The notes under the pieces: model-generated
What the model was told of the DNA's origin: nothing
The model's input: the letters and a program-made list of their open reading frames with translations, nothing else
Database searches by the model: none
Shown: piece by piece, positions 3,804-64,000 of the stretch
Position numbering within the stretch: the first letter of the stretch is position 1
Layout: the number at the start of each line of letters is the position of its first letter
DNA from: Dehalococcoidales bacterium
Lineage (GTDB): Bacteria; Chloroflexota; Dehalococcoidia; Dehalococcoidales; UBA2162
Length of the DNA stretch: 64,000 nucleotides
Assembly: GCA_034416335.1 (NCBI GenBank)
Contig: DAOULV010000003.1
Span: 45,617-109,616, forward strand
Direction: 5' to 3'
Translations under genes and position numbers: made by a program

Positions 3804-5120
3804 TTCACAATCCTCACACCTGCCCCTGGTACAAAGGCTGTTATATATGTGTATCAGCCCCTGTTGTCTCCTAACCGTATTGACTGTGGTCTTTTCTAGA
3901 CCGAGTTGCCCGGCCATGTGCTTTACTAGCGAGTTTGTTTCCAGGCGCGGATAATCGCGGAATAACTTCAACGCTTTTTCAGACATCTGTGATATTTCAT
4001 TAAAAACGCCACAGGCAAAGACAAAAGGCAGTAGTATATTCACTGTGATTTCTTCGGCGCGGCTTTTACCGAGGAGAGTTCCCCGGATATCTCCCAGGGT
4101 AACGATAAAACCCTTTTCAGGTTCACCGTGTCCTGCCGTTTCGGGAGCGGAATCCGCCAGATCCAGCAGACGCTCCAGCAGTCCTCTGTTCCGGTACCTG
4201 AGCAGGAGATAGCTCATTGCCATCAGCCTGCGTACCGGAGAATTGCACGGTCTTATTCTGAATAAACGCCATCTTTTCGAGGGCATAATATCCTCCGGGT
4301 TTATGCATTTTGCAGCCTTAACCAGCTTTTCTACCGTTATATTATCCAGACCGGCAGCATAGAGTCTTCCCGTATTATTTTCGGTCAAAAAACCGGCTGT
4401 ACCGAGGAGAAGCGTCTGTATACCGAAAAGATATTCCTCGTCCGGTATTTCGCAGTCCTTCTTCATCTCCAGCAATTCCAGCGGCAATACCCCTGCCAGT
4501 TCCAGAAACGCATCTTTATTTCCCGAGTATCCCAGTGCCACCATAATCCCGCGGTAAAGAGTCGCACCGGCACCGGATTCGATAATTTCTTCATAAAACC
4601 TAGTTGATTTTTCCAGGAACCTTTCTTCTCCCGCCCTGTCCAGCAACTCGCCGACGTATTCTTCAGTTATATATTTGGTGATGTGCCGGCAGGGCACGCC
4701 CCGCCTGTCACTGATATTAGGCTGCATCGGCAGACTATTCTGAACGATACCAGGATGTTTACCGAGGACGAGTATGGGAATCTTACTGCCGTTCTGAAGA
4801 ACGGTACCTGTTTTTGTATTATGATGCATCACGACATGCAGAACGACCCGATTATAGACAGAATCCAGATGATGATGGTGCGCCCTCCAGTCTCCGGACC
4901 TTAGATGAAACTCCACGTCGCCGGATGACAGCTTTCCATCGGTAACGATAACGGCATCTCTGAAATCGGCACCCTGACCGTCGTTCGGTCTTCCCGGATA
5001 GACAATGTTAATTATCTCCCCGTTTTCAGCCACGAGGTCACGTCCCACGATCTCATTAAGCTGCCAGATTTCCCTGAACTGCCTTTCGGTTATTGTGTGA
5101 CTCGTTTTTCCTGCTGCCAT
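3780..5120 (-). CDS. DUF2851-like conserved hypothetical protein
   Basis: 446-aa ORF. The N-terminus (ERQFREIWQ...[16 protein letters not shown]...[18 protein letters not shown]) matches my recollection of DUF2851. It ends at a TGA and overlaps the tsaD 3' end convergently by 24 nt. Confidence 0.7.
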
Positions 5121-27462: not shown

Positions 27463-29223
27463 ATGGCGGACAAAATTTACAAATGTCTGAATCCTGTCGG
27501 TATTCACGAACCGGTGGAATTTTCACCACTGTCGCCGCGCCTTGATAAGCTCGACGGCAAAACAATATTCGTGAGTATCGGCGCGGGTGGTGAACAGGAT
27601 ATCACCATTCCCCTGCCCAAGAAACTGCAGGAGAAGTACCCGCAGGTAAACTGGATAATCCAGGGAGCCGGACCCCACCTGACGAAAGCAGGAAGTATTT
27701 CTCTAACCGATGAGCAGGTGGAAAGCGGAGAGATAGACGCTCTGATACGCGGAGTAATCTGGTGACACGGAGCTATATGGGAGCAGTTGCCCCACTTAGC
27801 GACAATTGAAAAACGCGGTATTCCCAGCGTCTTTATTATCTATGAAGACCAGGACGAATGTTTCGAGCAGGCATGCAGACTCAACGGTATTCCCCATCTA
27901 AGACGTATTAACTGCTCACGCGTCATCCCCGGACCAGAGGACGTCGACAGGTGGATTGACGACCTGCTCGATGCTCTTGTCAGACCCCTCACTGCCGAGG
28001 AAAAAGCCGGCGGTAAATGGGAAGAACCTGACAAGAGGATACTTTTTGAAGGTACCCTTGAAGAGGCAAACGAATTCTATCAGCAGACAATGATAGTACC
28101 CACACTCCAGAATGCTCCTTTCTCTATTTATACCGACGGTATGCCGATAGTAATTCCCACGGAAGAACGGGTCGCAAAGATGCTTACCGGTACCAGCCAC
28201 AAACCTGATGAGATTATCACCTATCAAGCCGACCACAGACTCGGCGACAGAATAAACCAGATGGGCAGCTCCGGCGTTAAAGGCGAACCGGTCTACTTTA
28301 TGCCGATGAGACGGAAAGCAACGGTAGAGAAGGTTGCCACGATCGGCGTCATGGCAGGATGCAAGCCGGAACATATGCCGATTCTGCTGACGATGGCTGA
28401 ATCCGGCGGCGGCTGCAGCGACGGCCGCGGCGGCGGATCTTTTTGTATCTCCGGTCCTATCGCCAGAGAGATTGGTATGAATTTCGATGTAAACGTACTC
28501 GGTCCCGGCAATCCCTCCAACCGTTGCCTGGGACGCGCTACCGATCTTATGTGGCGTAATTTCGGACAGCAGATTCCCAGCGTAAATAACTGTGGTGTTT
28601 ATGGCGGTGGTATTACAAACGTTTTCCCTGAGAATGCCGACGCACTACCACCGGGATGGCAGGGTCTGAATGAAGAATACGACTTTAAAAAAGATGAGAG
28701 TATATTAATACCGGCTGGTGCTGGTGGCGGCGGTACGCACTTCTCCCCTGGAGGATACCGCGCATTCCAGAAGAGCGGTCACGGAGGAATAGCCAGGCGT
28801 CTGGGTGTAAAAGGCGTTCCAGGTCCTAAGAACTGGCTTGAATACGAAGTACCGGGCTGGTGGAAATGCGGAGAAGGTGGCATATCAATTATTATGCTTC
28901 CTGAAATGGCTCAGCACCTGTACGAAGCTGGTTTTAAATCCAAGGATGATGTATATGAATGGATTTATAAGCAGAGTTTCACGACGGTCAGGGAATACCG
29001 GACTCACTCCTGGCCCGATATGCGCACCAACGCCTGGAAGGGTATTGAAAAGACATCCGGTAAACACTGGTTGGAACTTGACGAGGATTATATGGTTCCC
29101 GCCTGTGAAGACCCCTTCAGCAACCTGATTATCGTAACGGGCGGCGGAGAAGAAATGGCTCTTATCGGTGGCGGTCGCATGGCAGGAATGGACGCAGCCT
29201 GGCATATCGACCCATGGCGGTAA
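27463..29223 (+). CDS. candidate selenoprotein: UGSC-family-like N-terminal domain fused through an in-frame TGA (27763..27765, residue 101) to an uncharacterised domain of about 480 aa
   Basis: Track ORFs 27463..27765 and 27787..29223 are in the same frame with nothing but the TGA between them. The read-through sequence is IDALIRGVIW-U-HGAIWEQLPHLATIEKRGIPSVFIIYED, a strand-U-helix-strand pattern. A hairpin follows the TGA. GAGGAG RBS before 27463. Confidence 0.6.
27772..27800 (+). promoter_or_regulatory. candidate bacterial SECIS hairpin
   Basis: GCTA-TA-TGGG-AGCAGTTGC-CCCA-CT-TAGC: two 4-bp helices around a 2x2 internal loop, with an apical loop containing GT that starts 16 nt after the TGA. 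Confidence 0.4.
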
Positions 29224-40829: not shown

Positions 40830-41819
40830 TTATGCCGGAACCGGCATACTTGAGTCCGTTCACCTGCTTCCACCACCTGCCGTGCAGCCGAAGCAGTGAT
40901 TTCCAAACCTTATTTTTCTGGTTAGCAGTGCCGACGAATCGAAGTTGTATATTCCGGTCGAATTGCCGGAGACTTTCATTCCGAGCGCCTGGTTGAAGTC
41001 ACAATCATAAAGGCTTCCGTCATAACCCACACTGATCAGGTAGCGGCAGACGAGACCTTTGACAGACTCAGGGCTAAAACTATTTTCCAGCTTATGGGTG
41101 TATTCTCTCAGATTATCTCTCTTTTTCAACAGAGAACGGAACCGGCCAATTGGCATATTGGTCACAGCTAAAAGTGAATTAAACACTAGACCATATCGGC
41201 TTGATAGTATTTTCCTGAATTGATTCTCTAAATGGTCTTTCTCATCTGGAGATATCGGACCATCACAGTTATGGACAAGATTCAAGACGAGTCCGGAATC
41301 AGGATGTCCGTAACCAAGTGAATTAAGACGTCGTATAGCTTTGATGCTTTCCCGAAACACATCTTTACCTCGTACCTGGTCGGTTATTCTTGCATTATAA
41401 TGAGGTAATGACGCCAGTATTTTTACATTGTTTTCCGCGAAGAAGTCTGGTAAGTATTCTTTGCTGCCCCGAGAGCCTGGATCTCCATCGGCAGTAACTG
41501 TTAGATTATGGCGAACAGTTACCTGTTTTCCCATTTTTCCGGCTTCCATAACCAGGTATTCGAAATCGGGGTGCAACTCCGGTGCTCCACCCGTAATGTC
41601 CAGGTTCTTACAACTATCCAGGTCGCTGATAACCTTCAGACATTGCTCCATAGTATCTCGACTCATTTGTTCGGTTCGGCCCGGAGACGCTTCAACGTGA
41701 CAGTGGGCACAGGCTTGATTACAGCGCATGGTAATATTAATCCACAGTGTTTGGATAGCAACCGGGCTTAGTTCCAGGCCATTATTGTCCAGAGTATTAA
41801 TAAAATTATTGTTTGCCAT
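40830..41819 (-). CDS. arsS: ArsS-type radical SAM/Cys-rich-domain (seleno)protein; in-frame TGA at 40860..40862 (residue 320), followed by 9 more codons to a TAA
   Basis: CNQACAHCH radical-SAM cluster motif. C-terminal sequence: HCFGCTAGGGSR-TGA-TDSSMPVPA-TAA. The family is annotated in RefSeq as a '(seleno)protein' whose C-terminal Cys can be Sec. A perfect hairpin lies 11 nt after the TGA. The start could be 41840 or 41819. Confidence 0.75.
40831..40848 (-). promoter_or_regulatory. candidate SECIS hairpin (could double as a terminator stem)
   Basis: The mRNA reads TATGCCGG-TT-CCGGCATA, a perfect palindrome giving a stem of about 7 bp with a GGUUCC apex. It starts exactly 11 nt after the UGA. 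Confidence 0.5.
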
Positions 41820-43164
41820 CTTCTGAGATTGCCAGAGCATGTTTCATTATTCCGGCGTAATCGTTATTTACCGGTACCGACTTTCTCTGCCACCGGCGAA
41901 GGTCATCTTCGGTATCGATGTCATCAAGAATCCTTAAGTTATGGACTCTGAGTCCTAATTCACCTGCTGAGGACACGGTCTGGTCATATACAGCATCGGT
42001 ACTCCAGGCAACGCCGTCAAAAAGACTCGGGTATAGTTCATTCATTCCAATGAGATAATATCCGCCATCGAAACTGGGCCCGATAACCAGATCAGCCTCC
42101 TTCAGGGCGCTAAAAGCCTCTTCAATGTCATCTACCGTAAGGTCGGGTACGTCCGTTGCGGTAATAATTACTTTCTTGAATCCTTTTTCAAACTGGTCAC
42201 GGAAGATTGTCTTGAGTTTTTCCCCCAGCACACCATTAACCTGCGGCTTGAAACGAAAACTCCGTCCGGCCCAACGCCGCACTCTCTTTCCGGCACTCCT
42301 CGGAGTATAGTATATGTTCCTGACGATATCCGTCGGAAGGTTTTCAACTTCTTTGAACAGGTGCTCGATACAGTCACGATAAAATTGTGTCGCCATCTCT
42401 TTACCAATCGTTCTTGCCAGACGCGTTTTGACCTCTCCCTCCGATGGATAACGCAGAAATATTACGAGACTCCTCTCGAATTTAAGGCTGTTACCGTAAT
42501 ATTTTTCAGCGAGTCTCCAGGGAGATACACCAAGCATATACTGTATGGTGTAATATACATTCTTTATCTGCTGCCGTATGATACCGTTCTTTACAAATCG
42601 ACGTGCTGAGGTTACAACCGAGACCGGGAAACGGTATACCCTTGTCTGTTTACGAGCTGCACGAATAAGCTCAAAGTCTTCAAACAGCATCCAGTTTGGG
42701 AATCCTCCCAGGTCATCAAAAAGAGATTTTCGGATTACTATGCCCTGGTCGCCAAATCGGAACAGTCCCATATCGAAGTTAGCCAGAAAACTCAATAGCC
42801 GCAGAAACCAGTGCTTCGTATCAAAAACAATCCCGAAATTCCCAATTTTTACTTCATCCTTGCTAAAGATTTCAGACAAGTAATTGAAGGCATCTCGAGG
42901 TAAAATCGTATCGGCATGAAGAAAGACGATAATCTCGCCGGCTGCAGTCGCAGCTCCAAGATTACACTGTAATCCTCTACATGGTTCAGTATGTAAAACC
43001 GTAGCTCCTGCTGTTTCCGCTATCACAGCAGTGTCATCGGAACTGCCGCCGTCGACAACGATGATTTCCGCATTTGACTGTTCAGAAACGATACTTGATA
43101 TGCAGGCCCCGATCGTTTCTGCTTCATTCAGCGTTGGGATTATCACCGAAAATGAATGTTTCAT
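41806..43164 (-). CDS. fusion of two rSAM/selenodomain-associated (arsenosugar-cluster) transferases: N-terminal GT2 (TIGR04283-like) + C-terminal DUF2064/CofC-like (TIGR04282-like)
   Basis: N-terminus: FSVIIPTLNEAETIGACISS...VVDGGSSDDT...FLHADT. C-terminus: SLVIFLRYPSEGEVKTRLA...VIITATDVPDLT...GPSFDGGYYLIG. Confidence 0.7.
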   Translation of the reverse strand: MKHSFSVIIPTLNEAETIGACISSIVSEQSNAEIIVVDGGSSDDTAVIAETAGATVLHTEPCRGLQCNLGAATAAGEIIVFLHADTILPRDAFNYLSEIFSKDEVKIGNFGIVFDTKHWFLRLLSFLANFDMGLFRFGDQGIVIRKSLFDDLGGFPNWMLFEDFELIRAARKQTRVYRFPVSVVTSARRFVKNGIIRQQIKNVYYTIQYMLGVSPWRLAEKYYGNSLKFERSLVIFLRYPSEGEVKTRLARTIGKEMATQFYRDCIEHLFKEVENLPTDIVRNIYYTPRSAGKRVRRWAGRSFRFKPQVNGVLGEKLKTIFRDQFEKGFKKVIITATDVPDLTVDDIEEAFSALKEADLVIGPSFDGGYYLIGMNELYPSLFDGVAWSTDAVYDQTVSSAGELGLRVHNLRILDDIDTEDDLRRWQRKSVPVNNDYAGIMKHALAISEDGKQ

Positions 43165-43384
43165 ACTTTCGCAATATCCGTTATTCCGTGAAATACATCT
43201 ATAATCGCGTCTGATTTTATCTTAGCTGGATTTTACCTCGATAACAATCCGTCATTTAACGCTGAATGCCAGGACAGACTGCCACTTTCTGCAGTCTCTA
43301 TTATGACAGCGGTACTTTGACATCCATTTTGCAAATGGCTAGTATGGAATAAGGAGACCGAGATAAATTTGGGAGATGTGGTGG

Positions 43385-44014
43385 ATGAAAGTTAAAAAAT
43401 TCGGGTTGTTTATAGTTTTTTCAGCAGTATTAGCCTTGTCAGTAACATCCTGTACTTCTCAGAATACGGAACAAGAAGCCGTATCGGGACAAGAGGGCAC
43501 TAACAAGGCAGTCTTAGAACCTCAACCAGATGAAATTTGGAATGACATTATTCCAGAACCGGGTACAGAAACTATTTATAATATTCCTCTATCACTTGAC
43601 AACACGCAGCAATTTATTGATTGGTTCTTTTCGATAGACCTGAATGATGATGAGAAAGAACTGAAGAACGAAGCCCTCGGTTCGCTGGTTGCACCCTGTT
43701 GTGACGAATATCCGATGAACGAGTGCTGATGCGAGTGCAATTTGGCCCGCAGTGTGTGGGGCCTGGCAACCTACCTTGTCAAAGAGAATTACGATGTTGA
43801 ACAGATTCAAGAGGCTTCTTCTCAATGGCTGCATTTTATTCGACCTGACTATTATGTAGCAAAAGCTCTTAAGGAAGAGCGACTTAATCCTGAACAATTT
43901 GGATTTACTTTAGATAGTTCATGTTTCTCGGGTCGCTGTGACACCCCTTTTTATACCAGAACATCCACTTCCTACCTTGGAGGTTGTGGCGGAATGGAAG
44001 AACTCATCCAATAA
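43385..44014 (+). CDS. candidate seleno-lipoprotein with a C-U-C-x-C motif; in-frame TGA at 43727..43729 (residue 115)
   Basis: Track ORFs 43376..43729 and 43742..44014 share a frame and are separated only by the TGA. Lipobox: LALSVTS-C. Read-through sequence: APCCDEYPMNEC-U-CECNLARSVWGL. A hairpin lies 14 nt after the TGA. Confidence 0.55.
43744..43763 (+). promoter_or_regulatory. candidate SECIS hairpin
   Basis: GGCCC-GCAGTGTGTG-GGGCC: 5 G:C pairs and a GU-rich 10-nt loop. The loop begins 19 nt after the UGA. Confidence 0.4.
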
Positions 44015-63551: not shown

Positions 63552-64000
63552 CTAATAAGCCAGATTATATATGTAATCCGGCACTCTGATCTCACCCCTG
63601 GGCTGGTCATACGGTGGATAATATGGTTTGATATCGATAACCGGTGTGCCGTCTAGAACATCCAGTCCACTCAATTTCAAAACATTTCCTTTTCTCTCGA
63701 TTAGCCTGACTGTTGTTAACCCGACCGGGTTAGGCCTGTCCGGTCACCTGGTAGCCAACATCCCGAGGAAGGGAACATCATTTCTCCCCTGCGGATGACA
63801 TCCTTCCCGATAGGTGTCGATACGGTTAAGCCAGTACAAAACCACAATATGCGAAAAGTCTTCAATTCCGTCCAAACATCTGGCGCAATCATCGTTTATA
63901 ACCAGTTCTGTTTCTAATTCTGTCAGACCGCCGGTTTGGGGTTCTTTTAGAGATGAATTAACGTATCCGATAGGTTTTATTTTAATATTGCCTTCAGGAT
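63552..64000 (-). CDS. trmO: TrmO/TsaA (YaeB, UPF0066)-like tRNA methyltransferase, N-terminus outside the window, interrupted by an in-frame TGA at 63744..63746
   Basis: My own translation: ...IKPIGYVNSS...LDGIEDFSHIVVLYW...VPFLGMLATR-TGA-PDRPNPVGLTTVRLIERKGNVLKLSGLDVLDGTPVIDIKPYYPPYD...*. It is not in the ORF track because neither half has a start codon. It is either a selenoprotein form or a nonsense pseudogene. Confidence 0.6.
63717..63732 (-). promoter_or_regulatory. perfect hairpin 11 nt downstream of the TrmO in-frame UGA (candidate SECIS)
   Basis: The mRNA reads UAACCCG-GU-CGGGUUA (7-bp arms). It is built from the codons for the conserved PNPVGL. Confidence 0.4.

Follow-up and report, generated by a model that had tools for sequence, protein, structure and literature searches.

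At the end of a 64,000-nucleotide stretch of Dehalococcoidales DNA (the window, by which we mean the whole stretch analysed) lies a minus-strand gene of the TrmO/YaeB type whose reading frame is broken by a single TGA, and the locus raises the question of whether this codon is a fresh nonsense mutation or a signal for the insertion of selenocysteine (Sec). From 63552 to beyond 64000 the minus strand translates into a TrmO_N/YaeB protein of 156 amino acids (aa) with this one interruption; the translation of 63552-63998 is PEGNIKIKPIGYV...DGIEDFSHIVVLYW...GMLATR*PDRPNPVGLTTVRL...LDGTPVIDIKPYYPPYD...YNLAY*, and the encoded protein reads, in order, ...DGIEDFSHIVVLYWLNRIDTYREGCHPQGRNDVPFLGMLATR-TGA-PDRPNPVGLTTVRLIERKGNVLKLSGLDVLDGTPVIDIKPYYPPYDQPRGEIRVPDYIYNLAY-TAG. 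The in-frame TGA occupies 63746-63744, with its G at 63745, and the regular stop codon (TAG) occupies 63554-63552. Codons 9-92, ending ...GMLATR, fill 63747..64000, while the ATG and the first eight codons fall outside the window; the gene begins about eight codons past its end, and the N-terminus (MHPIFPVD) was supplied by an identical record (L001/P0002) on contig CAYXFN010000002.1 of the metagenome-assembled genome (MAG) GCA_964464295.1, where the annotation gives it no more than an open reading frame (ORF) of 92 aa. The 63 codons after the TGA, together with the TAG, span 63552..63743 and include the RPNP motif, Asp121 and Lys132. The read-through protein matches Pfam TrmO_N at 8e-30 and scores 109.5 bits against TIGR00104 (curated cut-off 93.25), and these scores and the translation bear out an earlier note on this DNA, which had described a TrmO-like minus-strand gene with an in-frame TGA. 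Its remark that neither half of the gene appears in the ORF track holds at the default threshold of 60 aa and fails at 30 aa, where ORFs of 43 and 42 aa are listed.

Our analysis indicates that the TGA is conserved rather than a mutation and that it most likely encodes Sec; we put at about 90% the probability that this is an intact selenoprotein gene whose UGA at 63744-63746, the codon for residue 93, is recoded to Sec by the standard bacterial mechanism. Related loci were gathered at the DNA level, by a scan of species-representative genomes and a metagenome scan, with MAG taxonomy taken as labelled. The residue-93 codon is TGA in 58 of 58 distinct loci and TAA or TAG in none, and all of these genes run on to the normal C-terminus. 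The TGA loci share 45-86% amino acid identity and come from at least two phyla. A first group, with the motif T/S-R-U-P-D-R-P-N-P, is found in Dehalococcoidales/Chloroflexota MAGs at 52-86% identity to the window protein, and a second, with C-R-U-P-Q-R-P-N-P, in Armatimonadota/Fimbriimonadales MAGs at about 50% identity. All 58 of the 72-nucleotide (nt) segments around the TGA are distinct, so the loci are not copies of one contaminating sequence. At the protein level, the best 120 clusters include about 27 (73-100% identity) with lengths of only 92-98 aa, and those inspected end in ...LATR; in many independent assemblies, gene callers end the gene at this one codon. Two Dehalococcoidales-like copies (75-78% identity, with an in-frame bacterial Sec insertion sequence, SECIS) are labelled otherwise, as 'Bathyarchaeia' (L002, JAZFSF010000223.1) and 'Smithellaceae' (L006, JAXMLI010000290.1); these short contigs are probably mis-binned, with horizontal transfer a possibility.

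The part of the gene that follows the TGA behaves as coding sequence. Pairwise differences at codon positions 1, 2 and 3 are 0.25, 0.16 and 0.61, respectively, and no further stop codon was found downstream of the TGA in 57 sequences (62 codons); the downstream region is therefore translated and under purifying selection. Immediately after the TGA, in frame, come the codons for P-x-R-P-N-P, the best-conserved motif in the family, and two of the four S-adenosylmethionine (AdoMet) ligands defined in the Archaeoglobus fulgidus protein AF_0241, Asp121 and the essential Lys132 in the numbering of the window protein, lie in this downstream part.

The nearest relatives that do not use TGA carry cysteine. 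In all 40 loci of the sister clade the same codon is TGC or TGT, within the motif GIFACRCPQRPNPIA (ACRCPQRPNP). Of the best 120 protein clusters, 39 carry this CRC form, and where its sources are named they are DPANN-type archaea such as Woesearchaeota and Aenigmarchaeota. On a quick neighbour-joining tree built from BLOSUM distances, the Sec forms are monophyletic and sister to the Cys clade, apart from the forms with Ser. Zhang et al. (2005) asked that a candidate selenoprotein have two or more homologues with Cys at the position of its UGA (PMC1088965), and the 40 loci with TGC or TGT supply them here. Judged from these alignments, the UGA site is a classical Sec/Cys pair with respect to its nearest relatives, and not an odd exchange of Sec for Ser. 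The earlier note had framed it as Sec in place of Ser, which is right for the canonical and distant TrmO homologues, since Ser is seen in AF_0241 (TTRSPSRPNPIG) and in many distant homologues, and wrong for the immediate sister clade. We take E. coli TrmO to have Ser after its Arg92 as well. Both the C-R-U and the C-R-C forms have an invariant Cys at position -2, giving a CxU/CxC motif. The T/S-R-U clade is without a Cys at -2 and has instead clade-specific Cys46, Cys49 and Cys75 in 63-72% of its members, which may serve as alternative partners for the selenol. Cys46 and Cys49 form a CxxC (DDCARC), and Cys75 lies within ...EGCHPQG.

The second body of evidence is a hairpin in the RNA. After the UGA comes a spacer of 11 nt (CCGGACAGGCC, 63743-63733, minus strand) that codes for Pro-Asp-Arg-(Pro), and then, at 63717..63732, a SECIS-like hairpin UAACCC-GGUC-GGGUUA formed by the (P)NPVGL codons, with its 5' arm (UAACCC) at 63732-63727, the loop (GGUC) at 63726-63723 and its 3' arm (GGGUUA) at 63722-63717. 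The spacing given in the earlier note was thus confirmed, and its '7 bp, G-U apex' corresponds to a 6-bp stem plus a G-C pair that flanks the apical GU and itself covaries. In an alignment of the UGA regions of the 58 Sec loci (A2), on which the hairpin counts are based, the apical G22-U23, numbered from the U of the UGA, is invariant, and 95% of the cells of the seven-pair helix hold a base pair; sliding the 3' partners by 1-3 columns lowers this to 14-57%. Covariation is seen at two pairs: the one beside the apical GU is A-U in 28 sequences, G-C in 24, C-G in 4 and G-U in 1, and the basal pair is C-G in 26, U-A in 16, U-G in 3 and G-C in 1; both are synonymous third codon positions. None of 500 shuffles reached the observed covariation score, a control that ignores relatedness; the sliding of partners and the contrast with the Cys forms do allow for it. 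In five sequences with a Leu-to-Val change (UUR to GUU) the Pro codon is always CCC, which makes the stem perfect again (AACCCC/GGGGUU) with its register shifted.

That contrast with the Cys clade is strong. All seven pairs form in 45 of the 58 Sec loci and in none of the 40 Cys loci, and the mean minimum free energy of the hairpin region is -8.4 kcal/mol in Sec forms versus -1.0 kcal/mol in Cys forms. Where Sec forms have Val (GUN, the source of the apical GU) and Gly-Leu, the Cys forms have Ile (AUH) and Ala-Ile. Codon choice in the Sec forms is equally skewed: Gly is encoded by GGG in 98% of cases within the hairpin versus 19% elsewhere in the same genes, Asn by AAC in 98% versus 49%, and Leu by UUR in 100% versus 21%. 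This bias and the synonymous covariation across the Sec loci bear out the suggestion in the earlier note that the PNPVGL codons are chosen so as to form the hairpin. On this comparative evidence the hairpin is a selected RNA element. The SECIS would be made up of codons for the best-conserved motif in the family, a clear case in which an RNA signal shapes the sequence of a protein.

That the host of the window gene decodes Sec has indirect support: the same window carries a second gene with a Sec UGA, of a known selenoprotein family, and the Dehalococcoidia are rich in Sec. This second gene, ArsS (40831-41840, minus strand), scores 376 bits against TIGR04167, 'arsenosugar biosynthesis radical SAM (seleno)protein', and its in-frame TGA at 40862-40860 falls on the GxxU Sec site of the family (...CTAGGGSR-U-TDSSMPVPA), a motif listed in Table 1 of PMC13188914. 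The ArsS UGA is likewise followed by an 11-nt spacer, as the earlier note had observed, and by a 7-bp hairpin, UAUGCCG-GUUC-CGGCAUA, in which the G-U again occupies nt 22-23. With 46-49 selenoprotein genes in each MAG, Dehalococcoidia rank among the known bacteria richest in selenoproteins (PMC13326102).

Several results weigh against a Sec codon. No tRNA-Sec gene (selC) was found by ARAGORN in the window or in any of the 131 loci, and motif searches within the window found no SelA, SelB or SelD. The 60-nt segment taken alone folds no better than its dinucleotide shuffles (z = 0.07), and no Rfam family was found on the hairpin, either in a scan of the window at gathering thresholds or in a permissive scan of 63660-63780. 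The hairpin is also short, at 6-7 bp, and no U is bulged out of it as in the E. coli element. Finally, residue 93 is Tyr (TAC) in one close relative (P0001/L128) and Trp (TGG) in P0005, where the motif is CRW, so that on these sequences the residue would not be strictly irreplaceable, or else the Tyr and Trp copies would be decaying. The Tyr variant (L128:42-479), which is 79% identical, still has the hairpin codons AAC CCA GTT GGG TTA, and these look like a fossil SECIS left after the loss of Sec; a phage-integrase gene is also found on its short contig. As for folding, the 2150 TGA triplets of the window include one that is followed, after 10-13 nt, by a hairpin with an NGUN loop, where shuffles lead one to expect 0.67, and the significance of the hairpin comes from the comparative data, not from single-sequence folding.

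Among the other explanations, the one that survives best, though we consider it improbable, is that the UGA is read through without Sec, either by a near-cognate tRNA (Trp, Cys or Arg) helped by the hairpin or through a local or lineage-wide reassignment. Hairpins 3' of stop codons can promote read-through in general, no sel gene was found in the window or the loci, and the Trp codon in P0005 would be compatible with such decoding. Against this, TGA terminates 10 of the 45 long frames in the window, where it is also an ordinary stop, which rules out a genome-wide reassignment of UGA; the pairing of the site with Cys in the sister clade is what marks Sec, rather than Trp or Gly; the hairpin has the hallmarks of a SECIS in its 11-nt spacing and invariant apical GU; and the known selenoprotein gene ArsS is arranged alike in the same window, in a class documented as a heavy user of Sec.

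A split or truncated gene, in which the 92-aa N-terminal product is functional or separately made halves come together, is less probable still. The 92-aa ORF is indeed the output of gene callers in many genomes, but no conserved start codon or ribosome-binding site was found after the TGA in the Sec loci, where P-x-R-P-N-P follows immediately in frame, and translation of the C-terminal part therefore requires that the UGA be read through. The codon that could first serve as a start, a Leu UUG, is replaced by UUA, GUU or UUC in 27 of the 58 loci, and a 92-aa product would lack Asp121 and the essential Lys132, half of the four residues that bind AdoMet.

Scarcely credible, finally, is a pseudogene or a sequencing or assembly error, that is, a recent TCA-to-TGA change in the Ser codon of a normal TrmO gene: Ser does stand at the site in canonical and distant homologues, a single step separates TCA from TGA, annotation pipelines treat the gene as truncated and a few relatives (L031, L092, L101) are frameshifted, but the TGA is common to 58 distinct sequences from independent assemblies and two phyla, down to about 45-50% identity, the downstream frames are intact, under purifying selection and endowed with a covarying hairpin, and in the closest clade without TGA the residue is Cys instead of Ser. 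The 58 orthologues with intact and selected downstream frames refute this option, which the earlier note had left standing; it had also held that close relatives with Ser codons and no hairpin-keeping codon choice would speak against recoding, and the opposite was seen, with TGA throughout and the hairpin kept. The frameshifted copies in the three assemblies are true pseudogenes or assembly errors, and they show that decayed copies look quite unlike the TGA-only state. Of the two options that the earlier note had set side by side, it is Sec recoding that the conserved UGA, the covariation of the hairpin and the Cys counterpart strongly support.

If the UGA is recoded to Sec, as we consider most likely, the hairpin 11 nt downstream would act as the SECIS element, with SelB, carrying Sec-tRNA(Sec) and GTP, binding the exposed apical G-U. 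The UGA would then be read as Sec to give the full-length protein of 156 aa with the TrmO_N/YaeB fold (class VIII AdoMet methyltransferases). Sec would stand in the loop [T/S/C]-R-U-P-x-R-P-N-P, in the place of the Cys of the sister clade and of the Ser of canonical TrmO. Residue 93 directly follows the Arg that binds the carboxylate of AdoMet (R92, equivalent to R82 of AF_0241 and R92 of E. coli), and in AF_0241 this Arg82 (E. coli Arg92) was shown to bind the AdoMet carboxylate and to be essential (PMC4132733). The selenol would accordingly sit inside the AdoMet pocket or at its rim, where it could act as a nucleophile, as a substrate ligand or as a redox switch. A Sec-lined active site would give the subfamily a thiol/selenol-dependent chemistry distinct from the tRNA methylation that yields N6-methyl-N6-threonylcarbamoyladenosine (m6t6A). 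Arg92, Asp121 and Lys132 are invariant across all Sec and Cys forms in the alignment, and because of this AdoMet binding is presumably kept; the AF_0241 ligand Gln22 aligns with Thr30 of the window protein, with Gln29 adjoining.

The family to which the gene belongs bears on what such a selenol might do. The best match of the window protein among solved structures is AF_0241 (PDB 2NV4; E = 1.4e-23, residues 15-139), a short YaeB/UPF0066 protein of Archaeoglobus fulgidus that was crystallised with AdoMet. The translation of the window gene ends at residue 156, without the C-terminal domain bearing DPRxxY. E. coli TrmO needs this domain for the formation of m6t6A, a modification that was not found in archaeal tRNA (PMC4132733). 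Because the C-terminal domain is absent, the window protein is classed here with the short archaeal-type YaeB group and not as a bona fide m6t6A TrmO; the 'TrmO' label of the earlier note holds for the TrmO_N domain and does not extend to the DPRxxY domain that m6t6A formation demands. It is possible, although we consider it less likely than not, that the Sec/Cys clade is a distinct enzyme, other than a tRNA m6t6A methyltransferase, in which the selenol or thiol beside the AdoMet-binding Arg is catalytic. In one version, the selenol would be a methyl-relay nucleophile passing through an Se-methyl intermediate; in another, it would be a ligand that positions a soft substrate (a metalloid, or a thiol or selenol compound) for methylation, as the Cys/Sec of ArsM might suggest. 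If true, this would provide the first mechanistic handle on the orphan archaeal-type class VIII methyltransferases and the first selenoenzyme with a class VIII fold. Sec or Cys beside the AdoMet ligand marks, in any case, a residue of probable catalytic importance in archaeal-type YaeB proteins, and narrows to one residue and one clade the question of their substrate, which has been pending since TrmO was characterised in 2014 (PMC4132733).

The genomic setting gives hints of a metal or redox context that are inconsistent across loci. Inspection of the encoding contigs and of their ORFs by eye, together with all-vs-all clustering of 604 neighbouring ORFs, found no neighbourhood conserved beyond close relatives, and the largest cluster of neighbours on the Sec side, a MoaC-like ORF identified by eye, comprises five loci. 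Hemerythrin or DUF438/hemerythrin/PAS proteins adjoin the Sec forms L129 and L131 and the Cys form L122 and three others. At an Armatimonadota locus (L020:2496-2918), the gene stands divergently to an upstream ArsR/SmtB-like regulator, in which inspection by eye found an ELCVCEL motif. The genome of the window itself has a GNAT acetyltransferase, Fur, FeoB and a two-component system next to the gene.

TrmO_N/YaeB appears to be a selenoprotein family absent from the published lists that we searched. An inventory of May 2026, which covers 119 families of prokaryotic selenoproteins, has no entry for TrmO, TsaA, PF01980 or TIGR00104 (PMC13188914 Table 1). TrmO, TsaA and PF01980 are likewise absent from the deep-Sep paper with its supplementary reference set and from the text of BSepDB, and the GOS, Olavius and 2016 comparative-genomics papers have no entry for YaeB, UPF0066 or COG1720. 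None of the selenoproteins catalogued in those lists has the TrmO_N/class VIII fold, and a full-text literature search pairing TsaA, TrmO or YaeB with selenoprotein or selenocysteine returned irrelevant co-mentions only. The NCBIfam name of the TIGR00104 family does not carry the '(seleno)protein' tag that is borne by the name of the ArsS family. The recoding mechanism itself would be the ordinary bacterial one, and new bacterial selenoprotein families are still regularly reported, which tempers any surprise. The interest lies in the class VIII AdoMet methyltransferase fold and in the position of Sec beside a cofactor ligand. There is also a practical consequence, a systematic annotation error in which dozens of public MAG records give a 92-aa 'hypothetical protein' or a truncated TsaA.

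Two further frames in the window have an in-frame TGA. One, at 27463-29223 (plus strand), has 100 codons, a TGA at 27763-27765 and 485 further codons, and is a second candidate for an unannotated selenoprotein; the junction reads ...IDALIRGVIW-U-HGAIWEQLPH... and is followed, after a 13-nt spacer, by a hairpin with an AGUU loop. No Pfam or NCBIfam match was found for this frame. The same TGA occurs on the MAG contig L131 (at about position 4180; ADALIAGVIW-U-HGAIWGQLSH), together with a different but equivalent hairpin, GGGAC-AGUU-GUCCC. Most of the close homologue clusters, which are mostly from Chloroflexota, cover only the part after the TGA, those inspected beginning a few codons past it (MPHLATIEKRG...), and no full-length homologue with Cys was seen among the homologue clusters. 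The other is a Cys-rich lipoprotein-like ORF at 43376-44014 (plus strand) with a TGA at 43727-43729 (...PCCDEYPMNEC-U-CECNLARS...). It may belong to a CYCXC-type (seleno)protein family; it has no Pfam match, and in NCBIfam only a weak, sub-threshold match to an N-terminal lipoprotein model was found.

Set beside known systems, the window protein most resembles AF_0241 in architecture. Both are of about 150 aa, with a single domain and no C-terminal extension. The AdoMet ligands of AF_0241 are Gln22, Arg82, Asp111 and Lys122 (PMC4132733), and the last three correspond to R92, D121 and K132 of the window protein. They differ in that AF_0241 has Ser83 where the window protein would have Sec, and in that Gln22 is not conserved here. 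E. coli TrmO (YaeB), the tRNA m6t6A37 methyltransferase, shares with the window protein the beta-barrel TrmO_N domain and the ATR-x-x-x-RPNP loop, whereas its extra C-terminal DPRxxY domain is absent from the window protein.

At the RNA level, the obvious comparison is with the minimal SECIS of E. coli fdhF, in which 11 nt separate the UGA from the upper stem-loop and the apical loop contains G23/U24 (PMC8659212); the earlier note had drawn attention to this spacing, and the published measure agrees with it. The published sequence of that element also has GGTC at its apex (PMC10945757). The two hairpins thus begin at the same distance from the UGA, present an apical G-U at nt 22-24 and share a GGUC apex. 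In contrast to the fdhF element, the window hairpin is without the bulged U17 on the 5' side of the stem, which is uninterrupted in 58 of 58 sequences, its stem is shorter (6-7 bp) and no lower helix is conserved, RNAalifold of the Sec regions returning the apical hairpin only. The element is SECIS-like, of the general bacterial kind, rather than a copy of the fdhF type.

Among selenoproteins already catalogued, those that use AdoMet are ArsS (TIGR04167), the arsenite methyltransferase ArsM and MduS (PMC13188914 Table 1), to which can be added the Sec form of methylated-DNA-protein-cysteine methyltransferase (MGMT), a methyl acceptor that makes no use of AdoMet (PMC13188914). With these the YaeB protein of the window would share a Sec or Cys at or near the active site and recoding by a bacterial SECIS (PMC13188914), but their folds (radical SAM, Rossmann class I and MGMT) are unrelated to TrmO_N.

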